64,000 nt of DNA from Clostridia bacterium (GTDB lineage Bacteria > Bacillota > Clostridia > CAKSNL01 > HGM11501). Of the stretch, positions 2,732 to 47,758 are shown in pieces. The stretch is from the NCBI GenBank assembly GCA_045545475.1, contig JAZQAZ010000030.1, positions 87,764-151,763 of the forward strand, given 5' to 3'. The notes below the pieces were generated by a model that had not been told where the DNA came from, searched no databases, and worked only from the letters and a program-made list of their open reading frames with translations. The first letter of the stretch is position 1. The number at the start of each line of letters is the position of its first letter. The translations under genes and the position numbers were made by a program.

Positions 2732-5668
2732 TTATCTTGTAATTGTTATTTCCCTTGTCTCTCCGTTCCACTCTACGTTATAGCCAAGCTGTTCTGATAC
2801 GAATCTTACGGGGATGAAGGTTCTTGAATCCTTTATTACAGGCACCGTTCTTAAGGTGTAACGGATAAGCCCGTAGGAGGGATCATTTACATATACAAGC
2901 TTATAGCCAATCTGAAGTGTAAGGTCAATATTCTCTCCCTTAACTCCGATGGTCTGATTGTCGCCGTTCCAGGAAATTTCAGCACCCATAAGCTCTAAAA
3001 GTCCTCTTAAGGGAATTAATGTTGTGCCGTTTACGATGTAGGGTGCAACATCGATGGTCTTTGTCTTATCTTCTCCGTTTTCCCTGTACTTAATCTCGTT
3101 GGAGCCAACGGTAAGAACATACTTCTCGCCGTCATCTTCACCCTCGTACTGATAGAAGTCAAGCTCCGCTACACTTACACGCTTTGCGAAATATTCGTGC
3201 ACGGTAAACTCGATATATCTTATCTTCATCTCTTCGGGCAGGGGGATTTTCTTTGTAGAAAGATCCTTATCCATCACCATATCTTCTGCAACGGGAATCC
3301 AGTTTTCGTTGTCCGCACTTACCCACACACTTACCTTGAGCCAGCAGCCGTGAAAGTCATTGGTGTCACGGGGAGTATAGGTAATTTCCTTAACCCTTTG
3401 TACCTTTTTCATATCAACAACGAAAATTACCTCTTCACCGGTTTCAAGCTGTTCTGTCTGCCAGAAGGATTTAACGGTTCCGTCAAGTGCCTTGTCGGGA
3501 GTAGAGGTAGCCCAGCTTTCACCCTCATAGCTTATATCAAATAGCTTTTTATCAATTTTATATAAGACTCCCGCTTTTTCAATTTCCCTGAATCTTTCAT
3601 AGTCCACGGTTTCAAAGTCGGGATTTTCGCCAAGAACATTAATTTCCGCCAATGTGCCGTAGCCGCCCACCGCAGAGGTTATTTCGACTCTTATCTTCGA
3701 TGCCTTTATGTTTGAAAGGAAGAAGATTTCCTTATCGCCCACGCTCTGCTCAAAAGAAACATTTTCCTTTATGAGCTTAAGCTCATCCCCGCTTTTTTCT
3801 GCCGCATAGAGGTTTGCAACGATAAAGTTTCCGTTCAACGAATCCTGTCTGGGTGTTAAGTTAACACCTGATATAGTTTTTACAAGACCGAAGTCGATGT
3901 CTATGTTATAGGGAGGATTGTCATGGCCGACAACTGCACCGTCCTTCGCCTCATACTTTGAGTGCCAGTAGGTTTTCTTGTCTCCGTCAAGGGCAAGCTG
4001 AATGGTCTGGTTTCCCATTGTGGAGTTAACCTTAATATCCCAGGTTCCTCTTGCAAGATAAGGAATGCCTGTTTTCGACTCGCCTTCATAAATGGCCGTA
4101 TTATCTGCCTTTCCGTCCTTTAAGAATTCAATTTCAGCGGCAGAGCCGAAGTTTGCATTTGCTGCTGTTATTTCAATTTCGATAACTTTTACTTTTTTAT
4201 TTCCCCAGGTTGCACTTTCGGGCTTGTTGTTTTTGACAACAGACGTATAATTTGTAAAGTTTCCTACATAAATTCTCTCAAAGTTTACACCGTCGGCAGA
4301 ACCCTTTATGTTGTAGGATGAAATTGTTCCTACCGCGTTATCGATTCTGGGTGTGTAAATCCAGCCCGACACGTCAATAGCCTCGGGGAATTCAACCCTT
4401 ATGGTGAAAGGAAGAGGGTCTCTTGATGTAATGGTCGACCCTTCAGCAGTATACTTTGAGTGCCAGTAGGTTGATTTGTCGCCGTCAAATGCCTTGGCAA
4501 CAGGAGTAAATTCGCTGGATGCGGTAATTTTCCAGTCGGCCCCTTTGGGGATTTTAGTACCCGAATAAGATGCCTCGGCATCTTCTATGCTTCCGCCTTT
4601 TTTGGTGTAAAACTCAATTTCAGCCGCTGTGCCGTATCCTGAAATTGATGTGGTTATTTCAATTTTTATCGCCTTCATACTTGTCTTCGGGAAGAAGGCA
4701 TCCGTAGGCTTTGCATCCTTTGCGGGGCCTTCCACATAGGGGAATTTGCCTGTATAAATTTTTTCAAAATTCACTCCGTCCTTAGATGCATAAATGTTGT
4801 AAGTCTTTGCTGTTCCTGTACCATTATCGGTTCTCGGGGTATAACGCCAGCCTTCGATTTCCACGGTTTTGCCAAAGTCAACCGTTATGGTGTGGGGGCA
4901 TTCTTCCTTGCTTACGATTTTTGTTCCCTCTGCCTTGTATGCTGAATGCCAGTAAGTTGACTTGTCACCGTCAAAAGCCTTTGATGCGGCGTTTCCGGTG
5001 CCGTAAGCACTTGATGCACTTATATTCCAGGAACCGTCGTTTTTAAGAAGTTCTCCTGCAAGAGCTGTGCTTGCAGCAGGTGTTTCAGCCTTGGGTGCAG
5101 TTTCCTGTCCCTTAAAGGCTTCGCCGTTTTCGATTGCAGTTCCGCTTGTTCCCTTTAAGAACTCAATCTCCGCCGCAGTTCCGTAGCCTCCACGGCTATT
5201 TGTTACCTCGATTTTTATGGCTTTCATGGTGTATGCACCCCAGGAAGCCTCGGAAGGAGTAAACTCCGCCTTTGTCTTGGTTGCATAATCAAAGGTACCG
5301 GTAAATATTTTATTGAAGTTTTCTCCGTCCTTTGAAGCATAGATATTATACGCTAAAACCGTTCCTGTTTCATTATCCTTACGAGGTGTGTAACGCCAGC
5401 CGGAAATTTCGGTATCCTTGCCGAAATTAATTGTGATAACGTGGGGGCATTCGTCGTGGCTTAAAATTTTGCCGCCTTCTGCCTTATAGTTTGAGTGCCA
5501 ATTGGTGGATAAATCACCGTCGAAAGCATTTTTAATGCTTGTGCCTGTCTGGCTTGTAACAGAAATTTCCCAGGAGGAATCATAGGGAACAGCTTCCGAT
5601 GCACTTACAGCCATGCACATGGACATAACCATAAGAAGAGAAAGTAAAATTGCAAATATTTTCTTCAT
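2732..5668 (-). CDS. Secreted protein with five F5/8 type C (CBM32-like) domains and a C-terminal copper amine oxidase N-terminal-like domain (cassette 1 binding partner)
   Basis: Signal peptide MKKIFAILLSLL..ASA; five repeats of AFDG..T.W(H/Q)..Y.PR..AE(I/L); C-terminal APYIVNGTTLIPLRGLLE..RTFIPVRFVSEQLGYNVEW. Confidence 0.85.
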   Translation of the reverse strand: MKKIFAILLSLLMVMSMCMAVSASEAVPYDSSWEISVTSQTGTSIKNAFDGDLSTNWHSNYKAEGGKILSHDECPHVITINFGKDTEISGWRYTPRKDNETGTVLAYNIYASKDGENFNKIFTGTFDYATKTKAEFTPSEASWGAYTMKAIKIEVTNSRGGYGTAAEIEFLKGTSGTAIENGEAFKGQETAPKAETPAASTALAGELLKNDGSWNISASSAYGTGNAASKAFDGDKSTYWHSAYKAEGTKIVSKEECPHTITVDFGKTVEIEGWRYTPRTDNGTGTAKTYNIYASKDGVNFEKIYTGKFPYVEGPAKDAKPTDAFFPKTSMKAIKIEITTSISGYGTAAEIEFYTKKGGSIEDAEASYSGTKIPKGADWKITASSEFTPVAKAFDGDKSTYWHSKYTAEGSTITSRDPLPFTIRVEFPEAIDVSGWIYTPRIDNAVGTISSYNIKGSADGVNFERIYVGNFTNYTSVVKNNKPESATWGNKKVKVIEIEITAANANFGSAAEIEFLKDGKADNTAIYEGESKTGIPYLARGTWDIKVNSTMGNQTIQLALDGDKKTYWHSKYEAKDGAVVGHDNPPYNIDIDFGLVKTISGVNLTPRQDSLNGNFIVANLYAAEKSGDELKLIKENVSFEQSVGDKEIFFLSNIKASKIRVEITSAVGGYGTLAEINVLGENPDFETVDYERFREIEKAGVLYKIDKKLFDISYEGESWATSTPDKALDGTVKSFWQTEQLETGEEVIFVVDMKKVQRVKEITYTPRDTNDFHGCWLKVSVWVSADNENWIPVAEDMVMDKDLSTKKIPLPEEMKIRYIEFTVHEYFAKRVSVAELDFYQYEGEDDGEKYVLTVGSNEIKYRENGEDKTKTIDVAPYIVNGTTLIPLRGLLELMGAEISWNGDNQTIGVKGENIDLTLQIGYKLVYVNDPSYGLIRYTLRTVPVIKDSRTFIPVRFVSEQLGYNVEWNGETREITITR

Positions 5669-5683
5669 TATCTCATCCTCCTT

Positions 5684-8440
5684 TTAGTTTAAGTGGGAAA
5701 GTACACTGTTTACGGTAGCTTCAGGTGCACCTGACTTACTAACAGTGTAAATTCCGTTTCCGAGATTCTTTACTTCCCAACCGTAACAATCGGAAATAAG
5801 TGTCAAGGGAATCATAAATCTTCCGTTTTCGTAAACAACTGGAGCTGTCAGCGTTTTTGCAACACCGTTTACTCTTACCTCATTTGAGCCAAGAACGCAA
5901 TAAGTAAAGGTGTTGTTGATAATTTCTTTCTTATCCTCGCTCAAATCGTAATGATAGGTGTAGAAGGTGTTGTTCGCACTGTCATACTCTGTCTTGGAAT
6001 GACCGTATTCCATAATTTCATTATACGCATCCTCGGGGACATAGAGCGTACCGTTCATTTCAACGGGAGCTACTCTTATGTCGGATTCTAAAGTATATCT
6101 CTTTGCTCCGCAGGCGATTAACTTTGGACTTCCAGCCTTTAATACGGATGTGGATGTTTCCTTAAGTGCCTTTCTGTCTGCATCGGCTAATGCCGTCTGT
6201 TCAATTTCGGTAAAGAGATAGTTAAGCTTTCCGTAAGGAGCAACGCTGCCGTCTGAATAGAAGTTTAAGTAATCGCTCGATACATCAACAGAGTCAGACC
6301 ACTTAAGCTCCAAGTCAACCACGCCTGTTTCACCGATTACGCTTCTGGGAATTGCAAGCTGCATCATATTACCCTTTATTGTGTAATTTACATTTGCAAC
6401 ATTTGTTTTTCCAAAGGGTCCGTCGCCAAACTTTGATACAACGCCCTTTTCTATGATATAGTCATAGCCTTCCCAGCCTGTTACATAGTTTCTGTCGGTA
6501 TTTAAGTAGAGCGTCATAAAGTTTTCGGAATCACGGATATCCTTTTCACACTCTGCCATAAAGTAGATGTTATCATTGTCAAAGGTTGCCTTTGCACCCT
6601 TTATGGAGTTTACAACCTTTGTGGTATATTCCCATCTTTCTCCGCTCTTGCCGTATTTTCCGTAGCTTGTTACGTTTCTTTCATAGTCCTGATAGGAATT
6701 TACGAAGTAAGGACCAACCTCTGCCCACTGACCTGCATCACCCGCAAGGTCAATGGTCTTCATACCGGAGGCAACAGGTGCCTTTCTTGCACCCTTATAC
6801 TTTCTTACAAGGTCGATTAACATATTGTAGCAATCGTCCTTTAAGGGACCGCGGTTAGGCTCAAAGTCACGGCTGTTTTCATAGTCGAAAAGGTCAACAA
6901 AAGCGTTTTTGTTTCTGCCGTAGGATTCAAAGCGGATTGCATCCCACTCGTTCCATCCGTCAATCATCATAAATTCGGGATCGGCGTCAAGCGCAAATGC
7001 CGCCTGCTCACGGAAGAAGTATGCTTCTCTCATACCCTTTTCGGTATAATCTTCACCGAAGGCTTCGGAAAACGCTCTTCCCTTGCAGTATTCGGAAGAA
7101 AATGCACCAACCTCTTTCTGTCCGTAAATTGTGGACTGATTAATTCCTACGCCCACAACGACATAGCCCACTCTGCCCGTTTCGGGATTTACGTCACGGA
7201 GAGTCTGGGGGAAGTTTTCAAGCCACATCCACTCATCTTTCTTTGCTTCGCCGTTTCTCGGACCGTTGTACTTAACATTGAAAAGAGAATCTATTTCCGT
7301 AAAGAGTGCCTTTTCTGCATCTGTCTTCATAGCGGACTCATAGTTTTTATAATCCGCCCAGCCGTAAAGGAGCGGCGCGCCGTCCTTATAGTACCAGATA
7401 TCGGTATAGTCGTTTTCAACAAAGCAGGTATAGTAAAGTGCCGAAACCGCTCTTGCCGCATTGTCCGGGGAAACTCCGAGATTAAGCATAACACAGAGTT
7501 TTGGTGCGTCAACGCCCGTAGATTTAGCATCACGAAGTGCTTGTGCCAAAGTGTGAATTGTTGTCTGATATGTATTTCCGCCGTTTGAATAGTCAAGGAA
7601 CAAGGAATCAACCCCTGCTATTGCAAACATTTCCGCGTGCTTACGGTAGGTCCAGTAGTCAAAGGAATCATAAAAGCCGAAAACGGGCTCGCCCCAGAAG
7701 TATTTACCCTGAATATCCCACGCCTTGTGGAAATAATCCTCTCTTGAGCCGGGATTTGCCGCAATGATTTCGGGAATTACTGCCGCGTTTCTGTTGGAAG
7801 AATCCACTCTCCAGTTCCAGTAAAGCATACCAACTTCGCGAAGGCCTTCCTTTACGCCGCCAACCTCTTCGTAGGTGGCAACGGCTCTTCCGAAATTGTC
7901 AACTCCAACCCAGGTATCGGAATAGAGGTCAATAATTTTTGAATCGCCAACCTTTGCGGAGGTCACATCCTTTGTAACCTTTTCTTCCGACAAGGTGATT
8001 TCCTTTATTGCGATATAGTTTGTTGTGCCGTTTCCGTATAAACTGTAAAAATAAAGGTCGTGAACGCCCGTCACAGGCTCGATTGCCGCCTTTACGGTTA
8101 CATCGGTGTTTTCAAAGTCGGGCATTATGGTAAGGTTACCGATAATTTTGCCGTTTTCGGGCGAATCTATCATAATAAGATAGGTGTCACCGTTGTTTCC
8201 GCCGGAAACATATAAGGTGTTGTTAAGCCTCATACTTACGGAATTCATTCCCGTAAGGTCAACGCCCTTAAATCCGAAGCTGTCGCCACGGCTAAGCCCC
8301 CTTATAAAAGCGTCATTTGCATCAAAGCTGCCGTTTTTAATTGAAATATCTCCAACCTTTAACGCAGCATCTTTGGCAAAAACACTCATACAGGATAAAA
8401 CCATAATGAGCGAAAGTGCCAGAGCAAGTAGTTTTTTCAT
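5684..8440 (-). CDS. Secreted GH99/GH71-like putative glycosidase: CBM6-like N-domain, TIM barrel, beta-sandwich, amine-oxidase-N-like tail (cassette 1)
   Basis: Signal peptide; FKGVDL..TGVHDLYF (CBM6-like); YWNW..WGEPVFGFY..RKHAEMFAIAGVD..GWNEW..RDFEP; C-terminal NGTLYVP / RFMIPLTLISDCYGWEV. Confidence 0.65.
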   Translation of the reverse strand: MKKLLALALSLIMVLSCMSVFAKDAALKVGDISIKNGSFDANDAFIRGLSRGDSFGFKGVDLTGMNSVSMRLNNTLYVSGGNNGDTYLIMIDSPENGKIIGNLTIMPDFENTDVTVKAAIEPVTGVHDLYFYSLYGNGTTNYIAIKEITLSEEKVTKDVTSAKVGDSKIIDLYSDTWVGVDNFGRAVATYEEVGGVKEGLREVGMLYWNWRVDSSNRNAAVIPEIIAANPGSREDYFHKAWDIQGKYFWGEPVFGFYDSFDYWTYRKHAEMFAIAGVDSLFLDYSNGGNTYQTTIHTLAQALRDAKSTGVDAPKLCVMLNLGVSPDNAARAVSALYYTCFVENDYTDIWYYKDGAPLLYGWADYKNYESAMKTDAEKALFTEIDSLFNVKYNGPRNGEAKKDEWMWLENFPQTLRDVNPETGRVGYVVVGVGINQSTIYGQKEVGAFSSEYCKGRAFSEAFGEDYTEKGMREAYFFREQAAFALDADPEFMMIDGWNEWDAIRFESYGRNKNAFVDLFDYENSRDFEPNRGPLKDDCYNMLIDLVRKYKGARKAPVASGMKTIDLAGDAGQWAEVGPYFVNSYQDYERNVTSYGKYGKSGERWEYTTKVVNSIKGAKATFDNDNIYFMAECEKDIRDSENFMTLYLNTDRNYVTGWEGYDYIIEKGVVSKFGDGPFGKTNVANVNYTIKGNMMQLAIPRSVIGETGVVDLELKWSDSVDVSSDYLNFYSDGSVAPYGKLNYLFTEIEQTALADADRKALKETSTSVLKAGSPKLIACGAKRYTLESDIRVAPVEMNGTLYVPEDAYNEIMEYGHSKTEYDSANNTFYTYHYDLSEDKKEIINNTFTYCVLGSNEVRVNGVAKTLTAPVVYENGRFMIPLTLISDCYGWEVKNLGNGIYTVSKSGAPEATVNSVLSHLN

Positions 8441-8455
8441 ATTTGTTTCCTCCTT

Positions 8456-9325
8456 TTACATTTCAAGTATATATAAATTTCCGCAGACGTCGCTGTAGAG
8501 CAGCACTCCATCATGGAAATCTATCATTTCCGCCTCCGCTTCCATTCCGAGGGTACGGAAGTCAAGAAATTCAACTTGCTTTTTCTCCTTTACGTCAATT
8601 ATGCGAAGTGCGGGAAAGTTTACCTTATCCCCCGTAAAGCCTTCGACGGAGTAAATTTTGCCGTCATTAAAGCATCCGCCCTGAATAAAGCGGTGGCGCT
8701 CCGTATCAAAATATTCTTTAATATCTTCTTTTTTCAAGACAACCTTTTTTATGCCGTATTTTTCGTCAATTTCGCCGTCCGTTACCTTTGGCATATCAAA
8801 GGCAAAATATCTTGTTAAATTATCGCCGTCCTTCATGGTGTAGCCGTAATAAAGCTTCCGTTCTCTGTCAATTACAAAATTCCCGTAGGGGCGTATGTCA
8901 CTTCTTTCGCCCGATGATTTCCAGACTTCATCATCTGCAAAATCAATTGTAATCATCTGAAGGAGAGTTGTTTTGAAGGTTTCACCCTCCCGCTCCAATC
9001 TGTATACAAGGCTTGTTCCCTTAAGGGGATTTTCAGAGGCAGCATAGTTATTATATATGTTTGAATATAGCAGCGGAAACTCATCATCGGGCGAATAATA
9101 TTCGCATCCGAAATTAACCGCATTGGAGTGAGGCACTATTTCCTCTGCCCTGTCAAGATAAAAAGATGCAATAGCAGTAAGCTCTTTTGGCTTCTCTGTC
9201 GATTTGTCAACCTTTTTAAGATCATAAACACCGCAGTGTCCCCTGGAGTTAAAGCGGAAAAGAAGGTCAGAGAAGATGGCGCCGTCCTGATCTCCACATA
9301 TTTTTGCAATATGCCTTATTTTCAT
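8456..9325 (-). CDS. Hypothetical cytoplasmic protein, possibly a beta-propeller
   Basis: ATG 9325 behind AGGAGG; QDGAI, HSNAVNF, QGGCF and EAEMIDF motifs in beta-rich repeats. Confidence 0.5.
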   Translation of the reverse strand: MKIRHIAKICGDQDGAIFSDLLFRFNSRGHCGVYDLKKVDKSTEKPKELTAIASFYLDRAEEIVPHSNAVNFGCEYYSPDDEFPLLYSNIYNNYAASENPLKGTSLVYRLEREGETFKTTLLQMITIDFADDEVWKSSGERSDIRPYGNFVIDRERKLYYGYTMKDGDNLTRYFAFDMPKVTDGEIDEKYGIKKVVLKKEDIKEYFDTERHRFIQGGCFNDGKIYSVEGFTGDKVNFPALRIIDVKEKKQVEFLDFRTLGMEAEAEMIDFHDGVLLYSDVCGNLYILEM

Positions 9326-9345
9326 AAAAGACACCTCCTTAATAT

Positions 9346-22144: not shown

Positions 22145-22158
22145 CGGAGGTGCATAAC

Positions 22159-22186
22159 AAAAAAGGAGGGATTACTCCCTCCTTTT
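22159..22186 (-). terminator. Intrinsic terminator after cassette 2
   Basis: AAAAAAGGAGGGA-TTAC-TCCCTCCTTTT. Confidence 0.75.
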
Positions 22187-24674: not shown

Positions 24675-24687
24675 TTTTCCGCCTCCT

Positions 24688-27438: not shown

Positions 27439-27615
27439 AATTATCCCTTCCTTTGATTTTTTTATAATATTATTATACATTATCCTGCGTTTTTTGTCTT
27501 TATCATCAATTCCGACGTATTTATCATTTATTCCACAAAAAATTTTTCTTTTCTTTTTGGGAAATTTGTGGTATTATATATTAATGGAAGAAATTTTGAA
27601 AGGAGAAGTGTCCTT

Positions 27616-34837: not shown

Positions 34838-34910
34838 TCTTTTTTTGTCTTTTTCCTCCACTTTTCTCGCTTTTCGTCATTTTGCACAAACCAAAACGTT
34901 TGTTTTTGTG

Positions 34911-34945
34911 AAAAATGACACTCGCATATATGTTGCGAGTGTCAT
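34911..34945 (-). terminator. Intrinsic terminator after cassette 3
   Basis: ATGACACTCGCA/TGCGAGTGTCAT stem with a T-run on the minus strand. Confidence 0.75.
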
Positions 34946-34951
34946 CTGCAG

Positions 34952-37698: not shown

Positions 37699-40350
37699 TT
37701 ATATAAGCTCTGCAGCACGGAGTGCCGCATCGGTATCTATATCGGTTCCGAAGGCATAAATTCCGTTTCCTAAGTTTCTGACATCATAACCAAAGGTATC
37801 GAAAAGGAATGTTACGGGAACGTATGCAATTCCGTCAACGTCAAGCACAGGCTTTGTCAGCGTAATATCGACACCGTCAACCACACCTGTAAGTGTGCCA
37901 ACGGTTGTATAGCAGAATCCTTCCTTTGAATCGATTTTAAAGAAGTTTCTGTAGGACTCATAAATCGTCCTTGTTGTGCCGTAGCCCACTACATCCTTAA
38001 GCATTGTGTAGGGAACGTAAGCCGTTCCGTCAATTTCTCTTACGCCGTAGGCAGTATTTGCTTCAAAAGCATCCATAATTCCGCCTCTTACAACAGCCTT
38101 GCCCGATCCCGCTTTTACAACGGTTGTGTTTTTAAGAGCTTCTCTGTCGGAATCTGTTACAGCCTTCTCTTCTATTTCAGAATAAACATAGTTGAATCTG
38201 CTTGCGGGAGCACATATTCCTGTAATATAGAAATTAAGAATGTCGGAATCGTCGGAGTTATCCGCCCACTTGAATTCGATGTCTGTGATGTCCCCCATTC
38301 CGATTAAACTTTTAGCCGCCTTTATCTGAAGCTGTTTTCCACTGAGTACCTGTTCTGCTTTGCCCACAAGATTCCATGTTCCGTTAAAGCTGTAAACATC
38401 GGTATTTACAATTTTGTAATCATAGCCTTCCCAACCTGTCGCACGGTTACGGTCGGCATCGATATAAAGTGCCATCCAGTTATTTCCCGAAGGCGTGGTT
38501 ATATCACTTTCGCAAGTAGCTGTAAACCAGATAAATTCATCGTTTCTTGCAACCTTGCTTGTTTTTATATTGTTTCTTGCCGTCTTATTTACATAGTGAT
38601 TTTTTCCATAGCCTACCGCATCACGGTCGTATACTCCGCGTACATTGTAAAATGTGGGTGCCACATTATCCCAGGATGCGGGATTTGCCATGTCAATTGT
38701 GGTTTTTTCGCTTGCAGTTGGTGCGGGGCGAACACCCTTCCACTTACGGATAGCGTCAACCATCAGCATAAATCCGCTGTCACGGTTTCCGCCCTTTGCA
38801 AGGGCAAGGTCACGGGTGTTAACCTGGTCAAAGTGGTCAATAAAGGAATTTTTGAATTTACCTGAGTAGTTTTCCTGTCTTCCTACGGTCCATTCGTTCC
38901 AGCTTGAAATAAGCATAATTCTTGCATCAGTTTCGAGGGCACCTGATACCTGTTCTTCAAAAAAGTAGTTATACTTATATGCATCGGAATCCCATATATG
39001 GCCGAAGGTTTCGGTGTAGTTTTTGCCTCTTGCTGTTTTATAACCCATGGGAACAAGCTGTTCAGTTTCGATGGACTTGTTGCAGCCGCCTGCCACGGTT
39101 ACGGTTTCGGCATTTCCAGAAGAGTCCACACCATAGGTCTTCATAGGATACTTTTCAATGATAGACCATTTATCGGTTTTATCGGTAAGAGTATCGTTCC
39201 AGTCTCCCTCGATTCCTCGGAAGGTGAAGAAGTCAAGAATTTCTTCGGTTAATTTAACATCCTCGGGGTCATTTTCGTTAAGATAATGCTCCATTGACTC
39301 CTGATGTACCATCAAAAGGGGTTTACCCTCGTGATAATACCACAAATCTTCGTAGTAGCCGGGTTTGTAGAAGGTGCGGTACATATAGAAAAGCATAGTT
39401 TTTGCATTTTCCGTGGGGTACGCCATATTACCTGCCAGAGTAAACTTTGGTACATCCACGCCATCTGCCTTAGCGTCACGGAACGCCTGACAAAACGCTT
39501 CCATATTGCGGCGGAAAACCGCGATTCCGTTGGTGTCGTCAAAGAACAAAAAGTCTACCCCTGCCTCGGATAAAAGCTCCGCATCCTTTCTGTATACCCA
39601 GTAGTCGTTACCTGCATAGAATCCGTATAATGGCTCATCCCAGAAATACTCTGTCTTACCCTTTGGCCATGCAGGATGAAGATATCCGTCTTCCTTGTAT
39701 GCATCGGGAAACTCTAGCTGGAAGGTTGTGTTGTTTATAACTGCTTCGTTATCCTCATATCCTGTGTTCCATATCCAGTAAAACAGGCCTACTTCCTTTC
39801 CTTCCTTTACGCCGCCGACTTCAGAATAGTCGGCAACGGCACGACCAAGCTCGCTTGTTCCTGCCCAGGTGTCGGAAAAGTCGTCAATTACCGGAGCAGA
39901 TACGGGTGTGTAGCCTTCTCTTTCGGTAATTCTTTCGTCGGACAAGGATATTTCAAAAATATCCGATGCGCCTGCAGGGCCGTAGGTTGAAATTATGTAT
40001 AAGTCGTGCTTTCCCGTAACAGAAACGTTACAGCCAAACTCATTTTTTCCTTCTTTATAAAGGTCAATCTCACCGATAATTTCGCCCGTGGGCTTGTCGA
40101 TTCTCACCTCAAAAAGGTCACCGCTCCAGCCCGAGGTCCAGTTTGCCTCCGCCGTCATTCTTACGGACTTTACATTTGTAAAGTCAACAGAGGGGAAATA
40201 CACATAGTTCCCCTTTTGCATTTCGAGAATACCGGAGGTTAATTTTGCTCCTTCCATTTTTTCAATGGTAAGAGGAGTTGTTGCACCGAATGCATTGATG
40301 GTCGATATCGCCATAACAATGCAAAGGGCAATAGCAAGTACTTTTTTCAT
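37699..40350 (-). CDS. Secreted GH99/GH71-like putative glycosidase (cassette 3)
   Basis: ATG 40350 behind AAGGAG; DTWAGTSELGR, FYWIW, RKDAELLSEAGVD, SWNEW; same domain order as the other paralogues. Confidence 0.6.
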   Translation of the reverse strand: MKKVLAIALCIVMAISTINAFGATTPLTIEKMEGAKLTSGILEMQKGNYVYFPSVDFTNVKSVRMTAEANWTSGWSGDLFEVRIDKPTGEIIGEIDLYKEGKNEFGCNVSVTGKHDLYIISTYGPAGASDIFEISLSDERITEREGYTPVSAPVIDDFSDTWAGTSELGRAVADYSEVGGVKEGKEVGLFYWIWNTGYEDNEAVINNTTFQLEFPDAYKEDGYLHPAWPKGKTEYFWDEPLYGFYAGNDYWVYRKDAELLSEAGVDFLFFDDTNGIAVFRRNMEAFCQAFRDAKADGVDVPKFTLAGNMAYPTENAKTMLFYMYRTFYKPGYYEDLWYYHEGKPLLMVHQESMEHYLNENDPEDVKLTEEILDFFTFRGIEGDWNDTLTDKTDKWSIIEKYPMKTYGVDSSGNAETVTVAGGCNKSIETEQLVPMGYKTARGKNYTETFGHIWDSDAYKYNYFFEEQVSGALETDARIMLISSWNEWTVGRQENYSGKFKNSFIDHFDQVNTRDLALAKGGNRDSGFMLMVDAIRKWKGVRPAPTASEKTTIDMANPASWDNVAPTFYNVRGVYDRDAVGYGKNHYVNKTARNNIKTSKVARNDEFIWFTATCESDITTPSGNNWMALYIDADRNRATGWEGYDYKIVNTDVYSFNGTWNLVGKAEQVLSGKQLQIKAAKSLIGMGDITDIEFKWADNSDDSDILNFYITGICAPASRFNYVYSEIEEKAVTDSDREALKNTTVVKAGSGKAVVRGGIMDAFEANTAYGVREIDGTAYVPYTMLKDVVGYGTTRTIYESYRNFFKIDSKEGFCYTTVGTLTGVVDGVDITLTKPVLDVDGIAYVPVTFLFDTFGYDVRNLGNGIYAFGTDIDTDAALRAAELI

Positions 40351-40391
40351 ATTTTTACTCCTTCCATATGTAAACAGCCGTCGGCTGTTTT

Positions 40392-41372
40392 TTACATTCC
40401 GAACCACTTATTAACCAGCATAAATATAAGAGGAATGGTAAGGCATGACAAAAGGTGTGAAACCACCGCCATGCCTGCCGCCTTTGATGTGTCTTTTCCG
40501 TAGGCACTGGGAATTACAACGGTATTTAAGCCAAGAGGCATTGAAAGTGCACAAACGGCACAGACAAACACCGTTTCATCAAAGGGAATAAACTTAGCAA
40601 GTCCCAAAAATGCCAATGGGATAATTATGAGCCTTATAAAGGTTACCGCATAAATTTTAACATCGGTAAAGGTTTTCTTCATATCAATGGAAGAAACCGT
40701 GATACCCGTAAGAAGCATTGCAACGGGGCTCATACAGTCGCCCGATACCGTAATTACACTTGTTATAAAACCGGGAAGTCGTAAACCCTCTCCGCTCCAG
40801 GGCATCGGCACCGTGCTTAAAAGCCCTATTATCATACCGATTATCATAGCGATGAACATAGGATTCAAAAAGGATTTAAGGCTTTCTGTAAGACTCCTCT
40901 TTTCGCCGCTTCCGCCGATTAAAAGTGCAGGCACGCCCCAGAGATAAATCATTATCCATAAGGGCAAGGTGAAAATTATGTAATTTAAGAAGAGCTCTTC
41001 GGGAAAAAGTGCCTTAACCACGGCGTTACCCATAAAGCCGAAGTTTGCAAAGGCCAGGCCGTAGGTAAAAATGTTCTGCTCATATTTATCCTTTGTTAAA
41101 AGCTTTGAAATAAATGTGGCAATGGGCATCATAATGAGTATCATTATAAAGCTTATGCCGAAAACCTTTCCCGCCTCCCCTATTTTATTTACGGTGAAGT
41201 TGTTTATGAAGGTTCCCATTACAAGAGCAGGAACAAAAAGGTTGTTTTCAAGCTTTGACAAAACCGTTGCCGAATTGTCGGGTATGATTTTAAATTTTCC
41301 CAAAATATAGCCTATTACAATAAAGGCGAAAAGAAATGCTGTCTGATTTAATGTTGATAAAAATCCGTCCAT
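40392..41372 (-). CDS. AEC family (auxin efflux carrier/malate permease-like) transporter
   Basis: About 10 TM segments; FANFGFMG, NPMFIA, PVAMLLTG, SMPLGLN. Confidence 0.9.
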   Translation of the reverse strand: MDGFLSTLNQTAFLFAFIVIGYILGKFKIIPDNSATVLSKLENNLFVPALVMGTFINNFTVNKIGEAGKVFGISFIMILIMMPIATFISKLLTKDKYEQNIFTYGLAFANFGFMGNAVVKALFPEELFLNYIIFTLPLWIMIYLWGVPALLIGGSGEKRSLTESLKSFLNPMFIAMIIGMIIGLLSTVPMPWSGEGLRLPGFITSVITVSGDCMSPVAMLLTGITVSSIDMKKTFTDVKIYAVTFIRLIIIPLAFLGLAKFIPFDETVFVCAVCALSMPLGLNTVVIPSAYGKDTSKAAGMAVVSHLLSCLTIPLIFMLVNKWFGM

Positions 41373-41406
41373 AATCTGCTTCCTTTCATTTAAACGTGTA
41401 CCTTTT

Positions 41407-41435: not shown

Positions 41436-41532
41436 TATTATGATAACACGGCCGTTTCCTTCGGTCAATGTATAAAATGGACTATTGGTTGTGTTTTTTG
41501 AACTTTTCTTATTATAACATAATTTTCTCCAT

Positions 41533-41572
41533 TACGCAAGTGCGTATACGCAAAAATGTAAAATATTTTACA
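41533..41572. promoter_or_regulatory. Palindromic operator-like sites upstream of the XRE regulator
   Basis: TACGCA-AG-TGCGTA-TACGCA (41533-41552) and perfect 16-bp TGTAAAATATTTTACA (41557-41572). Confidence 0.5.
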
Positions 41573-41597
41573 ATATCTTTGTAAAGGAGGCCTTTTA

Positions 41598-41840
41598 ATG
41601 GACGTCAAAGATATAATAGTAAAAAGATTTACCGAGCTTTGCTCTGCCAGAAACATGAAAATCAACGAGCTTGCTAATATTTCAGGTGTTACTCCGTCAA
41701 CCGCTTACAGTATGATGGACCCTTCCCGCAGAGATGTATCAATAAGAACCATCAAAAAGTTTTGCGATGGATTGGAAATAACTTTAGGAGAGTTCTTTTC
41801 AACAAAAGATTTTGACGATCTTGAACAGGAAATAAAATAG
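41598..41840 (+). CDS. XRE/Cro-like helix-turn-helix regulator
   Basis: INELANISGVTPSTAYSM..TIKKFCDGLEITLGEFF; AAAGGAGG RBS. Confidence 0.9.
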   Translation: MDVKDIIVKRFTELCSARNMKINELANISGVTPSTAYSMMDPSRRDVSIRTIKKFCDGLEITLGEFFSTKDFDDLEQEIK

Positions 41841-42110
41841 GTTGTTTTGATATGAATTTACCAATCAGAAAAAGAACAAGATTAAAAGGTTATGACTATT
41901 CCGCTCCCGGAGAGTATTTTGTTACCATATGTACAGCTCAGAAAACGCATTTATTCGGAGAAATCAAAAACTCAGAAATGCATTTAAGCTCAATTGGCAA
42001 AATAGTTAATAGAGAAATCCTCGGTATAGCATCGCATTATGAAAACATCCGTATAGACAATTATGTTATTATGCCTAACCACATCCATATGATTATTGTT
42101 GTTGAACAAA

Positions 42111-42135
42111 CGGAAGGGATAAATCCCTTCCCTAC
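42111..42135 (-). repeat. GTAG-type REP inside the RAYT ORF
   Basis: Reverse complement is GTAGGGAAGGGATTTATCCCTTCCG. Confidence 0.85.
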
Positions 42136-42196
42136 GATAAAAAAATATGATATACCCAATGTGGTTGGAAAATTCAAGGCCGGAGTTACAAAAATT

Positions 42197-42221
42197 GTAG
42201 GGAATGCATTTATGCATTCCG
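42197..42221 (+). repeat. Second GTAG-type REP inside the RAYT ORF
   Basis: GTAGGGAATGCATTTATGCATTCCG. Confidence 0.85.
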
Positions 42222-42351
42222 CCAAAAAAACAATTTGGCAGCCATCCTTTCACGATCACATAATACATGGCGAAAAAGATCGCCTGAAAATTTCTGAATA
42301 CATTAATACAAACCCTTTAAAATGGGAATTAGATTGCTTTTATAACGATAG

Positions 42352-42380
42352 AAGACCGTAGCAAATGCTACGGTCTTTTC
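42352..42380. terminator. Bidirectional terminator between RAYT and cassette 4
   Basis: AAGACCGTAGCA-AA-TGCTACGGTCTTTT. Confidence 0.75.
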
Positions 42381-42381
42381 C

Positions 42382-45087
42382 TTATTTCTCTATTGTTATT
42401 GTCTGTGTATCGCCGTCCCAGGAAACTTTATAGCCAAGCTGTTCGGATACAAATCTTAACGGAATAAAGGTTCTTGAATTATTTATTCTGGGTGCAACGA
42501 TTACGCCGTGTCTTACGTCATTTACATAAACTCTTGTATTTTCTATCTGGAAAATCATTTCTGTTTTTCCGTCGGAAACGGTGATTTTTTCCTCGTCGCC
42601 GTTCCAGGAAACAGTTGCTCCCATCTCCTCAAAGAGACCTCGGAGGGGAATCATTGTTGTTCCGTCAACAATGTAGGGTGCAACGTCAATAACCTTTGTC
42701 TTTTGCTCTCCGCCCTGCTTTACGGAAATTTCATTGGAGCCAATTTTAAGGACGTATGCTTCTTTTTCGCTTTCCAGTCTTGCCTTCTGAACGTTTTCCG
42801 TTTCAAAGAAGCTTACATCGCCCGCCGATGCGTGGGACGACTGAATTTCTCCGTTGTCGTTAAGAGTTCTGAATATTTCAATCTGGAAATATCTTGCTTT
42901 TACCGATTCAGGGAAGGCAAGCATATGATAGTTATAGCTATTTGCCTGGGTATCGTTGAAAAGGAAGGTGTCGATTTTTTCAAAATTATTTCCGTCAACG
43001 GAATACCATATTTCAAATTCAACCCAGTGACCGCTTCTGAAGCCGCTTCCTCGGGGCATATAGCCGAGGGCACTTATCTCATATTCTTTGCCGAGGTCAA
43101 ATTCAAGTAATGCGGGCATAACTTTCTGATTGTAGGCTGAGCCGTCCTCATTTGTATATCTTGTGTGCCAGAGCGAATAAACGCTTTCGTCAAGAAGCTT
43201 TGAAGCATAAAGGCTGTGAGTGGGGTTTTCGCTGGACGCTGTTACCTTAACATCCTTTTCGTCGATTGCAACAAGGGCGTAATCGCCGGGATTTGCCGCA
43301 ATATCGGATACCGTTACGGTTTTAAGTCTCTCTAAAGGCTTTAACACCCTTATTTCTGCCGCAACGCCGAAGTTTGATGCCGCATGGGTTATAGTAAGTC
43401 TTACCGCCTTTGCCTTTATGTTTTTATTAAAAGAAACCTGGCAGGGTGTTCTGTCGCCAAAGCCTGAGTTTTCGCCGTAGTACATTGTATAATCGGTTAC
43501 AACAGGAACGAAGTTTTCACCGTCATCAGAAACAGATGCCGTCACGATATAGAATATACCGCTGGAGGCTTCTGGCTTCTGTCTGGGGTAATAACGAACA
43601 CCCGAAACTTCCTTTTCCTCGGGGAAGGTTATGGTAAAGTCAAAGGGAGGTGTATCTTGAGAAACGATTGAGCCGCCCTCTGCCTTATATGCTGAGTGCC
43701 AGTAGGTGTTCATTTTACCGTCAATGGCGTTTTCCGCCTTTACCATTACGCTGGAGGCTTCCGCCGTCCAGTTTTCGGGGACATATTCATCAATTTCGTA
43801 TGTAACATCCGTAGAGGAAGCTGAAGCCTGAGGCGTGGTTGTGTCCGTTGCAGGCTTTTCTTCCTTCTTTTCTTCTGTTATTTTAACCCCGGTAATATCA
43901 GCCGCCTTTAAGGCTGCATCGCTCTTTAAGAGATGAAGCTCCGCACAGGTAGAAAATCCGCCGTGACCGTTTGTCACAGTAAGTCTCAGTGCTTTTATTG
44001 TAACATTAGAATCAAACTTTGTAGCCCTTCCTCCCTCACGGTCGGAATATGCTCCGTTATAGGTATACTTCACATTTCCGAGAGAGGTGAAGTTTTCACC
44101 GTCAGCAGATATTTCAACCCCTGCTTCAAGAATTGTGCCTGCAACCGCACCGCCAAGGCGGGGATAATAGCGAAAGCCCGATACTTCCAGAGTATAAGGA
44201 AGTGTAAGGGTTAAAACGTGGGGATAAGGGTCGATTTCCGTTATGGTAGAACCCTCTGCCTTGTAGCTTGAGTGCCAGATAGTATCAATATTTCCGTCCA
44301 CCACATACTTTGCAGAGCCTACACCGGTTGTCGCTTCCGCAACCCAGAAATCCATATCGGTTACTTCATCGTCGTGCTCTTTTTTAGTTTCTTCCTCTTT
44401 CTTGACATCGCCCACTCCTGCAGAAGCACCTGCTACACTTGCCTTGGGTGATGCGTTTTCTGATGCAATATGCTCGGTTGGCTTTCCGTCCAGCGTTGCG
44501 ATTATTACCTTTTCCTTTAAGTCAACATCCTTTATGCTAACCTGTTTAAGGGAACTATCGCTCTTAAGAAGGGAAAGTTCTGCCATTGTGCCGAAATCCG
44601 TATATGCACGAAGGACATTTAATTTAATGGACTTAACCTTGATATTGCCCGTAAAGTTTACTGTTTTTCCGCCCTCACGGTCGGAATATGCACCGTTATA
44701 CTGAAACTTAACTTCGCCCACTTCTTCATAATCCGTTCCGTTTTCAGATGCGTAAATCATCACATCGTAAAACGTGCCAGATACCGCACCGCCAAGGCGG
44801 GGGTAATAGCGAAGACCGGATATTTCAGTTACTTCGGGAAGGGTAAGTTCAATAATGAAGGGCGGTCTGTCCTGACCTGTTATTGTTCCGCCGTCAGCGG
44901 TGTAGCTTGAGTGCCAGTAGGTATTTATATCACCGTCGATAGCATTTTTAATGGGGATTATTTCGCTGGATGCGGAAATAGTCCAGCCGTCTTTTGAAAT
45001 TTCATCGTCCGCCGCAAAGGATAATGCCACGGAAAAGAGTGAAACAATAATGGAAACTGCCGCAATTATTGATAATAATTTTTTCAT
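42382..45087 (-). CDS. Secreted protein with four F5/8C (CBM32-like) domains and an amine-oxidase-N-like tail (cassette 4 partner)
   Basis: ATG 45087 behind AAGGAGG; close paralogue of 34952-37690 (YYPRLGG, YSDREGG, WHT.Y.NEDGS). Confidence 0.85.
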   Translation of the reverse strand: MKKLLSIIAAVSIIVSLFSVALSFAADDEISKDGWTISASSEIIPIKNAIDGDINTYWHSSYTADGGTITGQDRPPFIIELTLPEVTEISGLRYYPRLGGAVSGTFYDVMIYASENGTDYEEVGEVKFQYNGAYSDREGGKTVNFTGNIKVKSIKLNVLRAYTDFGTMAELSLLKSDSSLKQVSIKDVDLKEKVIIATLDGKPTEHIASENASPKASVAGASAGVGDVKKEEETKKEHDDEVTDMDFWVAEATTGVGSAKYVVDGNIDTIWHSSYKAEGSTITEIDPYPHVLTLTLPYTLEVSGFRYYPRLGGAVAGTILEAGVEISADGENFTSLGNVKYTYNGAYSDREGGRATKFDSNVTIKALRLTVTNGHGGFSTCAELHLLKSDAALKAADITGVKITEEKKEEKPATDTTTPQASASSTDVTYEIDEYVPENWTAEASSVMVKAENAIDGKMNTYWHSAYKAEGGSIVSQDTPPFDFTITFPEEKEVSGVRYYPRQKPEASSGIFYIVTASVSDDGENFVPVVTDYTMYYGENSGFGDRTPCQVSFNKNIKAKAVRLTITHAASNFGVAAEIRVLKPLERLKTVTVSDIAANPGDYALVAIDEKDVKVTASSENPTHSLYASKLLDESVYSLWHTRYTNEDGSAYNQKVMPALLEFDLGKEYEISALGYMPRGSGFRSGHWVEFEIWYSVDGNNFEKIDTFLFNDTQANSYNYHMLAFPESVKARYFQIEIFRTLNDNGEIQSSHASAGDVSFFETENVQKARLESEKEAYVLKIGSNEISVKQGGEQKTKVIDVAPYIVDGTTMIPLRGLFEEMGATVSWNGDEEKITVSDGKTEMIFQIENTRVYVNDVRHGVIVAPRINNSRTFIPLRFVSEQLGYKVSWDGDTQTITIEK

Positions 45088-45100
45088 GTTTTCCGCCTCC

Positions 45101-47758
45101 TTATATAAGCTCTGCTGCACGAAGTGCCGCATCAGTATCAATTTCTTCGCCGAAAGCATAAATTCCGTTACCTAAGTTTCTTACGTCAAAGCCGAACAAA
45201 TCAAACATAAGCATTACGGGAACATAAGCTATTCCGTCAACGTCAACCACCGGGTGCTTAATCTTGATTTTTGCACCGTCAATCGTTGCCTCAAAGGTGC
45301 CGACGGTTGTATAAGCCATACCCTCTTTTGCATCAATCTTAAAGAAGTTACGTTCTCTTTCATAGGTCAAAAGTGTGGTACCGTAGCCTATTGCATCCTT
45401 AAGCATTGTATAGGGAACGTAAGCCGTTCCGTCAATTTCTCTTACACCGTAAGCGGTATTTGCCTCAAAAGCGTCCATAACGCCGCCACGGATAACCGCC
45501 TTGTTAGAGCCTATTTTCACAACGGTTGTGTTTTTAAGGGCTTCTCTGTCTTCTTCAGTTACAGCCTTCTCTTCTATTTCGGAATAAACATAGTTAAATC
45601 TTCCGGTGGGTGCTGTTAAACCTATTATATAGAAATTAAGAATGTCCGAATCGTCGGAATTGTCCGCCCATTTAAATTCGATATCGGTTACATTTCCTAT
45701 TCCGACCAATGCTTTTGCCACCTTAATCTGAAGCTGTTTGCCTGAAAGCACCTGCTCTGATGAGCCGATGGCATTCCAGGTGCCGTTAAAGCTATAAACA
45801 TCGGTATTTACTATTTTATAATCGTAGCCTTCCCAGCCGGTTGCACGGTTTCTGTCAGCGTCGATATAAAGCGCCATCCAGTTATTGCCCTCGGGAGCAG
45901 TTATATCGCTTTCGCAAATGGCAGTAAACCAGATAAATTCATCGTTTCTTGCCGCCTTGGAAGTTTTTATATTGTTTCTTGCAGTTTTGTTTTCATAGTG
46001 ATATTCTGCATAACCTGCAATATCTCTGTGGTATACGCCCTTTACATTGTAGAACGTGGGTGCGACATTATCCCAGGATGCGGGATTTGCCATATCAATG
46101 GTGGTTTTCTCACTTGCAGTGGGTGCGGGACGAACGCCCTTCCACTTGCGGATAGCGTCAACCATCAGCATAAAGCCGTGGTCCTTGTTTTCGTCAACGG
46201 AAATGCCGAGGTCACGGGTTCCGGGAGAATCAAAATGGTCAACGAAGGAGTTTTTGAACTTGCCGATATAGTTTTCGTTTCTTACAGCCGTCCACTCGTT
46301 CCAGCTTGAAAGAATCATAATTCTTGCATCTGTCATAAGTGCACCGGATACCTGCTCTTCAAAGAAGAGGTTATAAACGGAGGCTCCGGACTTCCAGATA
46401 TGTCCGTGGGTTTCGGTGTAGTTTTTGCCTCTTACAAGATGAGGAAGGCTCATAGGCGTAAGGGATGCATCAACGATTGATGCATTTCTTGCGGCAGATA
46501 CGGAAACTGTTTCGGCCTTGCCTTCAGAATCCACGCCAAAGGTTATCTGGGGATAACGGTCGGTAAATGTCCACTTCGTGGGTTTTCTGTCTTTCGTATG
46601 GCTCCAGTCACCCTCACTTCCGCGGAAGGTGAAGAAATTCATAATTTCGTTGTAAAGCTTAACGTCTTCGGGATCGTCCTTATCCAAAAAGTGTGTGAGT
46701 GCTTCTTCGCTCGCCATAATTAATGGCTTGCCCTCGTGATAGTACCACAAATCCTCGTAAAGCCCCTGTTTGTAGAAGGTTAAATAGAGGTATTCAACCA
46801 TATACTTTGTGTCGATAACGGGATATGAAAGGCTGCTTAAAATTGTGAACTTGGGAACGTCAACGCCGCTCTTTTTCGCATCGGAGAAAGCCTCTAAAAA
46901 TACGCCCATATTCCTTCTGAATATGCCTCTTCCGTTACTGTCGTCAAAATACAAAAAGTCAACGCCAGCCTCAGAAAGAAGTTCTGCATCCTTTCTGTAT
47001 ACCCAGTAGTCAACGCCCGTATAGTAGCCGTATAAAGGCTCGCCCCAGAAGTAGTTGGTTTTACCTAAGGGCCATGCGGGGTGAAGGTATCCGTCTTCTT
47101 TATAGGCGTCGGGATACAACTTTTGGTATGTTGTGTTATTTATAACGTTTACGGTATCTTCCTGGTTTACGTTCCATATCCAGTAGAAAAGTCCCACTTC
47201 CTTGCCTTCCTTAACGCCGCCAACCTCGGAATAGTCGGCAACTGCACGGCCAAGGCCGCTTGTTCCTGCCCAGGTATCCGAATAATCGTCTACTATTAAA
47301 TCTTCGGACACGGGAACATAAGCTTCCTTTTCGGGAAGGCTTTCTTCAGAAAGCATTACCTTGCTTACCCAGGATGCTCCCGCAGAGCCATAGGTTGCAA
47401 TTATGTAAAGGTCGTGAACACCTTCTTTATTTATATTGCAACCGAATGTAGCCTCATCTTCCGAATCCATATCAATATAGCCGATGATTTCACCCTTAGG
47501 AGAGTCAATTCTCACTTCGAAAATTTCTCCGTTCCAGTAGCTTGACCAGTTGGCTTTACCGTAGATACTTACGGATTTTTTGCCCGTTAAATCAACATCC
47601 TCAAAAAGAAGATATTCACCTGCCGCCATGCCTACCTTTCCCGTAGCAGGCTTGGTTTTGCCTTCGGACATTTTATCGATTGTAAGCTCTTCGGCACAGA
47701 TTCCCATAACCGAGAAAAGCATTACAAAGGATAAAAGCAATGTTAATACTCTCTTCAT
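45101..47758 (-). CDS. Secreted GH99/GH71-like putative glycosidase (cassette 4)
   Basis: Close paralogue of 37699-40350 (DTWAGTSGLGR, RKDAELLSEAGVD, SWNEW, near-identical C-terminal half). Confidence 0.6.
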   Translation of the reverse strand: MKRVLTLLLSFVMLFSVMGICAEELTIDKMSEGKTKPATGKVGMAAGEYLLFEDVDLTGKKSVSIYGKANWSSYWNGEIFEVRIDSPKGEIIGYIDMDSEDEATFGCNINKEGVHDLYIIATYGSAGASWVSKVMLSEESLPEKEAYVPVSEDLIVDDYSDTWAGTSGLGRAVADYSEVGGVKEGKEVGLFYWIWNVNQEDTVNVINNTTYQKLYPDAYKEDGYLHPAWPLGKTNYFWGEPLYGYYTGVDYWVYRKDAELLSEAGVDFLYFDDSNGRGIFRRNMGVFLEAFSDAKKSGVDVPKFTILSSLSYPVIDTKYMVEYLYLTFYKQGLYEDLWYYHEGKPLIMASEEALTHFLDKDDPEDVKLYNEIMNFFTFRGSEGDWSHTKDRKPTKWTFTDRYPQITFGVDSEGKAETVSVSAARNASIVDASLTPMSLPHLVRGKNYTETHGHIWKSGASVYNLFFEEQVSGALMTDARIMILSSWNEWTAVRNENYIGKFKNSFVDHFDSPGTRDLGISVDENKDHGFMLMVDAIRKWKGVRPAPTASEKTTIDMANPASWDNVAPTFYNVKGVYHRDIAGYAEYHYENKTARNNIKTSKAARNDEFIWFTAICESDITAPEGNNWMALYIDADRNRATGWEGYDYKIVNTDVYSFNGTWNAIGSSEQVLSGKQLQIKVAKALVGIGNVTDIEFKWADNSDDSDILNFYIIGLTAPTGRFNYVYSEIEEKAVTEEDREALKNTTVVKIGSNKAVIRGGVMDAFEANTAYGVREIDGTAYVPYTMLKDAIGYGTTLLTYERERNFFKIDAKEGMAYTTVGTFEATIDGAKIKIKHPVVDVDGIAYVPVMLMFDLFGFDVRNLGNGIYAFGEEIDTDAALRAAELI

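Follow-up and report, generated by a model that had tools for sequence, protein, structure and literature searches.

Four copies of a two-gene cassette, each encoding an enzyme-like protein and a multidomain lectin partner, lie on the minus strand of a 64,000-nt stretch of a Clostridia bacterium genome (GCA_045545475.1, JAZQAZ010000030.1, positions 87,764-151,763 of the forward strand; hereafter the window). These cassettes are real and represent a probably undescribed, putative glycan capture-and-cleavage module, a variant of glycan utilisation loci. This reading builds on their domain make-up, the fold relation of the enzyme-like protein, the strict pairing of the two genes, their expansion, their duplication as units, and their genomic context. 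The function we regard as most likely, with moderate confidence, is capture and endo-cleavage of glycans at the cell envelope, with the two-gene unit serving as a niche-expansion module.

A strictly paired unit expanded across one genome

The likely starts of the cassette genes were read from the translations. A preliminary description of this DNA had reported four minus-strand cassettes with the enzyme-like gene first and 8-15 bp between the two genes; both coordinates and gaps were reproduced (Table 1), the distances from the likely starts being 15, 13, 8 and 13 bp in cassettes 1-4. It had also placed a terminator behind each cassette. A hairpin of -24 to -30 kcal/mol indeed follows every partner stop codon within ~20 nt, whereas the accompanying T-run is clear only in cassettes 2 and 3. 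The enzyme-like proteins of cassettes 2-4 are paralogues of enzyme 1, with 50, 37 and 35% identity.

A survey of the genome (2.74 Mb, 50 contigs, 2342 open reading frames, ORFs) identified 42 full-length paralogues of the barrel-containing enzyme-like protein. All 42 are followed on the same strand by a gene encoding F5/8C (CBM32-type) domains and a C-terminal Cu_amine_oxidN1 domain (PF07833; hereafter the stalk). This partner is the immediate neighbour in 41 cases, and a xylose-isomerase-like gene intervenes in the remaining one; one of the 42 partners is cut off at a contig end. Because every paralogue has the same neighbour in the same orientation, chance is excluded. Together, the 84 paired genes occupy 223,765 bp, or 8.2% of the genome.

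Assembly duplication was considered as a source of the repeats and rejected: the barrels are at most 85% identical to one another, and the pairs are spread over 22 contigs of an assembly that is 95% complete with 0.4% contamination.

Pairing in other genomes was counted in 77 fetched loci. Stalk-bearing barrel genes were followed by an F5/8C gene in 29 of 31 cases. One of the two exceptions lies at a contig end; in the other, the next gene is a truncated 741-aa ORF without a Pfam match, which resembles the 'long partner' subtype described below. Among stalk-less barrel homologues, by contrast, none of 68 had such a partner. This difference identifies the pairing as an invention of one clade and not a property of the whole enzyme family. 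The obligate enzyme-lectin pair proposed earlier thus stands, as a near-obligate association, within the stalk clade, and does not extend to the wider barrel family. The barrel itself was detected in all 13 other genomes of the same taxonomic family, with 3 to 53 candidates each, and in only one of 27 other families sampled elsewhere in the class (both at E <= 1e-20).

Distance matrices of the parts of the pairs were compared across the 41 complete pairs. Barrel distances and partner-body distances were strongly correlated (Mantel r 0.59; 0/2000 permutations reached this value), and in 25 of the 41 pairs barrel and partner body share the same nearest neighbour. These correlated distances and shared neighbours demonstrate that the pairs were duplicated as units. 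Mean pairwise identity rises from the partner body (29%) and the enzyme N-terminal domain (31%) through the enzyme tail (39%) and the barrel (45%) to the partner tail (54%). Divergence is therefore fastest in the binding parts and slowest in the partner stalk.

The enzyme-like barrel and its candidate active site

Pfam leaves ~600 central residues of the window enzymes without a match. The four central regions matched no Pfam family, Glyco_hydro_99 included, even at E 10; NCBIfam returned no match for the four enzymes, and a single-sequence search of the PDB with enzyme 1 returned none either. Ahead of this region, three of the four proteins carry a weak N-terminal CBM_6-like match in Pfam.

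Residues 160-750 of enzyme 1 were modelled with AlphaFold2 on the basis of 36 homologues, and the model reached a predicted local distance difference test score (pLDDT) of 90.6 and a predicted template-modelling score (pTM) of 0.93. Its residues ~1-400 form a (beta/alpha)8 barrel and residues ~420-591 a beta-sandwich. Searching the PDB with this model by Foldseek put the Bacteroides GH99 endo-alpha-mannosidases BxGH99 (4ad1) and BtGH99 on top (E ~1e-7), with GH71 at E 2.5e-7. VIA-align likewise ranked human MANEA of family GH99 first (6zdc; Z 19.2, 278 residues aligned, root-mean-square deviation 4.6). The second neighbour was 5ngw, titled 'glycoside hydrolase-like protein' (Z 17.2), and the GH71 structures 8yfh and 9fnf reached Z 15.7 and 14.7, whereas generic barrels plateaued at 12.4 or below.

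Sequence profiles point in the same direction. A 40-sequence family profile searched against the PDB returned GH99 entries only at E < 0.05, the best being BtGH99 4acy (E 3.6e-4, profile positions 79-370). The motifs P..G.YSS.D..(I/V)(L/I)RKH, GKPL and (W/F)NEW are common to the profile and BtGH99. Identity between the barrel and GH99 is 13-15%, and of six long homologues scanned with the Pfam GH99 model, two gave sub-threshold matches on this domain. Fold neighbours, profile match and shared motifs together support the barrel as a distant homologue within the GH99/GH71 fold group. The preliminary description had assigned the barrel to this group, in which WNE-type motifs occur, and this agrees with our results, the WNE motif aligning with NEW(HEG) in GH99. 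The family is large, comprising 1967 clusters at 50% identity (E <= 1e-3) across several phyla, and its members are named 'hypothetical' or 'stalk domain-containing' at source. Neither Pfam nor NCBIfam has a name for it, and it may be new to CAZy.

Further comparison with GH99 revealed both conservation and loss at the putative catalytic centre. The GH99 motif NEWHEG contains two glutamates, which we take to be the catalytic residues E333 and E336 of BxGH99. The corresponding barrel motif is WNEW.(A/T/V).R. Its first glutamate is kept in 41/41 paralogues, and E498 of enzyme 1 is the candidate catalytic residue. The position of the second is never acidic in these paralogues (A 22, T 12, V 4, S 2, N 1), and the barrel therefore lies outside GH99 proper. 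Seven further residues are invariant in 41/41 (D278, D283, N286, D516, R524, D525 and D535 in enzyme 1 numbering). In model numbering, the whole invariant set reads W337-N338-E339, D119, D124, N127, D357, R365, D366 and D376, of which N338, E339, D357, R365, D366 and D376 are invariant also across 40 distant family members. Such invariant polar and acidic residues fit a conserved active site.

Distant homologues extend the association between barrel and lectin domains. Long homologues (1219-3480 aa) were surveyed by a word-based domain search in the 120 listed of 125 with E <= 1e-5. F5/8C domains occur in the same chain as the barrel in 16 of these 120, and were confirmed on P0065, P0135, P0228, P0288, P0293 and P0348. 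Other C-terminal modules among them comprise dockerins (4), SLH domains (2) and type IX secretion system tails (10), the place of the stalk being taken elsewhere by known anchoring or assembly modules. Stalk-less Bacteroidota homologues adjoin SusC/SusD (58 proteins, 12 loci scanned). Two of the 12 loci, which come from Bacteroidota, Planctomycetota and Sedimentisphaerales, have a lipoprotein-like F5/8C gene between SusD and the barrel gene; these two, L047 and L053, share the order SusC, SusD, BT_3987-like_N + F5/8C protein, barrel gene, CotH. The same-chain fusions, the pairs of the stalk clade and the L047/L053 arrangement together indicate that barrel and F5/8C domains have been linked repeatedly, in cis or in trans.

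The CotH kinase-like gene directly after the barrel gene occupies 8767-9997 in L047 and 4628-6259 in L053, both Bacteroidales loci resembling polysaccharide utilisation loci (PULs). In addition, DUF5722 (aa ~290-700) is fused to the barrel and beta-sandwich (aa ~705-1282) in proteins of ~1290 aa that are widespread in Bacteroidota; this architecture was found in P0321, P0333 and ~55 others (hhalign probability 100, E 7e-117).

These observations bear on whether the barrel cuts glycans or merely binds them. The pairs might be adhesins, acting as colonisation factors on host mucus or food particles or as surface variants, with the barrel as a binding domain, and the multivalent lectins, the secretion of both products and the huge, fast-diverging paralogue family would suit such a role. 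We nevertheless judge it improbable, given that the acidic and polar barrel residues are invariant in all 41 paralogues and in distant members, as expected of a kept active site, and that homologues occur in SusC/SusD loci and beside exo-glycosidases.

Lectin partners and stalk domains

Domain analysis revealed four to five F5_F8_type_C stretches in each window partner (E 7e-52 to 1e-81; 175-271 bits against a Pfam cut-off of 28.2). Across all 42 pairs, hidden Markov model (HMM) searches counted two F5/8C domains in six partners, three in six, four in 23 and five in seven. A signal-peptide-like N-terminus is present in 84 of the 84 products of the pairs, as judged by a crude hydrophobicity rule. 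The multi-F5/8C partner and the signal peptides on both proteins had been described beforehand, and our data support them. No LPXTG motif was found among the 84 proteins.

A 'long partner' subtype of 1059-1340 aa deviates from the common layout: ~800-1000 N-terminal residues without a Pfam match precede two F5/8C domains and the stalk (Table 1). This N-terminal part may conceal another domain or enzyme.

The stalk differs markedly between the two proteins of a pair. All window partners end in a strong Cu_amine_oxidN1 match (E 3e-28 to 2e-36; 98-125 bits), whereas enzymes 1-4 match weakly, at 32.9, 32.0, 21.2 and 25.1 bits. The earlier claim that both proteins end in this domain therefore stands firmly for the partners; for the enzymes the domain is divergent and passes the Pfam cut-off of 24.2 in three of four. 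An HMM iterated on this genome recovered the stalk in 42/42 enzymes, where the tail is also longer (~165 aa versus ~125 aa in the partners).

Genome-wide, 112 ORFs carry Cu_amine_oxidN1 by HMM: 42 enzymes, 41 partners and 29 others, the last including a PrsA-like peptidyl-prolyl isomerase and a rhamnogalacturonase-like beta-helix protein, both secreted. Because 29 of the 112 lie outside the pairs, the stalk is a general module of this organism's secretome. The domain is reported to be frequent in cell-wall hydrolases (PMC4137172).

The number of Cu_amine_oxidN1 ORFs in this genome, like that of AraC-like ORFs (82), is unusually high for 2.74 Mb.

How the stalks act within a pair is central to any model of assembly. 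One proposal is a cognate heterodimer, in which every enzyme, through its divergent tail, would specifically recognise the canonical stalk of the cognate partner in a 1:1 complex, with a logic resembling that of cohesin and dockerin. The two tails are indeed distinct subtypes that always co-occur, and tail-tail distances remain correlated after barrel and partner-body distances are removed (partial Mantel r 0.28, 0/2000), although incompletely removed shared history may explain this residue. We consider such private pairing unlikely. No other part of the system is as conserved as the partner tails (54% mean identity; 23 invariant columns across 26 sequences), which makes a common target likelier than 42 private ones, and the stalk occurs on the 29 other secreted proteins as well. 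A complex prediction for the tails of enzyme 1 and partner 1 scored 0.24 and 0.22 against a mark of 0.32 in runs without controls, and speaks neither for nor against an interaction.

Multi-lectin proteins are not confined to the pairs. A giant 3070-aa protein encoded at 12379-21591 on the minus strand combines nine F5/8C stretches, CBM_X2, Flg_new repeats and three SLH domains, and is an S-layer-anchored multi-lectin. Two further giant F5/8C proteins, of 2668 and 2256 aa, are encoded elsewhere in the genome.

Genomic context and proposed function

The genes around the pairs include regulators and glycan-degrading enzymes. A divergent AraC-family gene lies directly upstream of 11 of the 42 pairs, and 17 of 42 have one within three genes upstream or two downstream; genome-wide, AraC-like genes make up 82 of 2342 ORFs (3.5%). 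Flanking-gene content was determined by Pfam for 129 of the 218 ORFs flanking the 38 pairs outside the window. Carbohydrate-active enzymes among them belong to GH20 (4), GH106-like (2), GH43 (2), GH42, GH95, GH29, GH78 and GH28, accompanied by BNR/sialidase-like proteins, a glucuronyl esterase, a GDSL esterase, and sugar-acid and inositol-type enzymes. This mix points to complex heteroglycans of host and plant type and names no single substrate.

Directly upstream of one pair and on the same strand, two glycyl-radical (PFL-like) enzymes and a radical-SAM activase are encoded at C3:30143-35522 (L080 8920-14187). They may process a released sugar, for example a deoxyhexose.

The same context bears on a further alternative, that the pairs remodel the cell's own envelope. 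SLH-anchored giant proteins in this genome imply a secondary wall polymer on which such enzymes could act, yet 42 diverged copies with multi-lectin partners and many AraC regulators are hard to square with wall turnover. Neighbouring fucosidase, hexosaminidase or rhamnosidase genes, and the swing in candidate number from 3 to 53 among genomes of the same family, also argue against this idea, which we regard as highly improbable.

Collectively, the data favour glycan foraging. Each cassette would be a co-transcribed two-gene unit with which an uncultured lineage of gut Clostridia forages for glycans outside the cell. The first gene would encode a secreted, probably endo-acting glycosidase whose barrel is a distant, unnamed relative of GH99/GH71, and the second a secreted multivalent lectin with two to five F5/8C domains. 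The stalks would keep both proteins together at the envelope, through a common envelope component or oligomerisation, so that the lectin could hold a complex glycan while the enzyme cuts it; exo-glycosidases encoded nearby would complete degradation. Whole-unit duplication followed by diversification, fastest in the lectin body, may have generated 42 specificities, many with their own AraC-type regulator.

In this scenario catalysis, endo mode, ligands, surface location and stalk function are inferred. Several points weigh against it. GH99's second catalytic glutamate is missing in 41/41 paralogues, so GH99 chemistry cannot simply be copied over. The homologue P0288 carries Big_3 and three SLH domains behind its stalk; because the SLH domains come after it, the stalk need not itself be the wall anchor and could be a spacer or oligomerisation module. 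Few sugar transporters flank the pairs among the 129 ORFs classified: these yielded one ABC transporter set (Bmp/BPD_transp_2) and one EamA gene, to which the window adds one EamA and one Mem_trans gene. Expression data are sparse as well. Contigs of 85-696 nt from four metatranscriptomic libraries of one study match cassette 1 and its upstream ORF at 95-100% identity, and none spans the cassette 1 junction at 5669-5683; DNA carry-over is possible. The small shares recovered (0.07-0.14) give no basis for habitat or expression level, and uncovered parts carry no meaning. Taken together, the libraries are a weak hint at best that cassette 1 is expressed.

Compared with the Sus paradigm of Bacteroidota, far less is understood of the ways in which Gram-positive gut bacteria seize and open complex glycans. 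In the uncultured Clostridia lineage studied here, one two-gene design takes up 8% of a small genome. Its 42 naturally occurring enzyme-lectin pairs offer a ready panel in which to look for new glycosidase specificities, and through them the function of Cu_amine_oxidN1, a widespread but unexplained domain of Firmicute surface proteins, could be probed. Proof of activity would make the barrel the founder of a CAZy family, or a large addition to an existing one.

Table 1. Coordinates of the cassettes, their parts and associated features (window positions, except for the long partners)
Feature	Position	Strand	Description
Enzyme-like gene 1	5684..8440	-	918 aa; signal peptide, CBM6-like, GH99/GH71-like barrel, beta-sandwich, divergent stalk tail
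CBM_6-like N-terminal domain, enzyme 1	7988..8305	-	aa 46-151; 24.9 bits, under Pfam cut-off of 28.9
Central region, enzyme 1	6191..7963	-	aa 160-750; modelled (beta/alpha)8 barrel and beta-sandwich; no Pfam match at E 10
W496-N497-E498, enzyme 1	6947..6955	-	invariant in 41/41 paralogues; aligns with F-N-E of GH99 NEWHEG
C-terminal tail, enzyme 1	5687..6190	-	aa 751-918; divergent Cu_amine_oxidN1-like domain at aa 788-892
Partner 1	2732..5668	-	978 aa; signal peptide, 5 F5/8C, canonical Cu_amine_oxidN1 at aa 868-976
Terminator-like hairpin after partner 1	2688..2719	-	14 pairs; weaker T-run
292-aa ORF	8456..9334	-	no known family; 15 bp upstream of enzyme 1
Enzyme-like gene 2	24688..27480	-	ORF 930 aa; likely start 27438
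Partner 2	22188..24713	-	ORF 841 aa; likely start 24674; 4 F5/8C and stalk
Hairpin after partner 2	22158..22186	-	clear T-run
Enzyme-like gene 3	37699..40407	-	ORF 902 aa; likely start 40350
Partner 3	34952..37690	-	912 aa; 4 F5/8C and stalk
Hairpin after partner 3	34910..34950	-	clear T-run
Extra unpaired lectin gene	33236..34771	-	511 aa; 2 F5/8C and stalk; behind cassette 3; own hairpin and T-run
Mem_trans (AEC-type) membrane transporter gene	40392..41372	-	directly upstream of enzyme 3
Enzyme-like gene 4	45101..47758	-	885 aa
Partner 4	42382..45159	-	ORF 925 aa; likely start 45087; 4 F5/8C and stalk
Hairpin after partner 4	42351..42377	-	weak T-run
EamA-type membrane transporter gene	47781..48677	-	22 bp upstream of enzyme 4
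AraC-family regulator	48736..49602	+	divergent from EamA/enzyme 4/partner 4 unit
Long partner, locus L081	C8:32009-35923		
Long partner, locus L102	C37:21393-25415		
Long partner, locus L103	C38:43808-46987		

The immediate surroundings of cassette 1 suggest a possible third member of its operon. A promoter-like site (11/12) at 9374-9346 precedes the 292-aa ORF, a position that could make this ORF the opening gene of operon 1. Sequence searches of Pfam, NCBIfam and the PDB matched neither this ORF nor the 655-aa ORF at 625-2592. The latter flanks cassette 1 on the minus strand, is of a type present in four copies in the genome, and lacks a signal peptide on visual inspection. Directly behind cassette 4 lies an IS200-like Y1 transposase gene (41852-42361, plus strand).

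Comparison with known systems

The literature searched on the domain combination, the stalk domain, GH99-like families and gram-positive loci with CBM32, which excludes most subscription journals, contained no description of a paired and expanded system of this kind, in keeping with the earlier view that it is not a described one. A preprint on Hadza gut Clostridia makes no mention of copper amine, discoidin, CBM32, GH99 or stalk.

Among glycoside hydrolases, GH99, a family of endo-alpha-1,2-mannosidases/mannanases, is the best structural match, with the shared motifs G.YSS.D..RKH, GKPL and NEW and an invariant first NEWHEG glutamate. The barrel departs from GH99 in that sequence similarity stays below family level and one NEWHEG glutamate is gone; its protein also adds a CBM6-like domain, a C-terminal beta-sandwich and a stalk tail. 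GH71 (alpha-1,3-glucanase), a mostly fungal family, is the second structural neighbour group, yet neither profile nor Pfam searches match it to the barrel in sequence. A third candidate is the recently named GH195, described as an extracellular, PUL-encoded endo C6-sulfate alpha-1,3-mannanase of marine Bacteroidota that is distantly related to GH99 (Microbiome 2026, PMC13063451). Compared by this description only, an endo-acting, extracellular, PUL-encoded and GH99-related enzyme has the profile expected of our barrel, which could belong to GH195. The word-based search of the 120 listed long homologues of 1219-3480 aa found no sulfatase fusion, a weak negative.

The cellulosome offers a parallel in assembly, as it too unites secreted enzymes and binding modules through a common C-terminal assembly or anchoring module, and some distant barrel homologues carry dockerins. 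The eight window proteins had no Pfam match to Dockerin_1 or Cohesin, and no scaffoldin was identified.

Gram-positive PULs (gpPULs) are defined by the combination of a regulator, a transporter and a glycoside hydrolase. AraC regulators are common beside the pairs, a possible likeness to gpPULs, Firmicute loci of Roseburia and Eubacterium rectale that join a regulator to glycoside hydrolases (PMC5320581). The pairs may differ in that a transporter is mostly not adjacent among the flanking ORFs classified, and an obligate enzyme-lectin pair expanded 42-fold falls outside the gpPUL concept.

In function the pairs resemble the PULs of Bacteroidota, in which a surface endo-glycanase and a surface glycan-binding protein are encoded beside SusC/SusD. 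The window contains no SusC/SusD, there is no outer membrane, and the unit consists of two genes whose products share a C-terminal Cu_amine_oxidN1 domain. A bolder reading, which we put forward tentatively and hold to be possible rather than probable, is that the pair constitutes the basic unit of Gram-positive glycan foraging in a PUL-like role. It would comprise a new glycoside hydrolase family of the GH99/GH71 superfamily with non-GH99 machinery and an obligate multivalent CBM32-type lectin, both joined at the envelope by complementary stalk subtypes that form a new assembly module, with up to ~50 copies per genome directed at as many complex host, plant or microbial glycans. Bacteroidota PULs present the same combination of surface capture and endo-cleavage that we propose here, spread over many paralogous loci with their own regulators, and they host homologues of this very barrel, twice beside an F5/8C protein.

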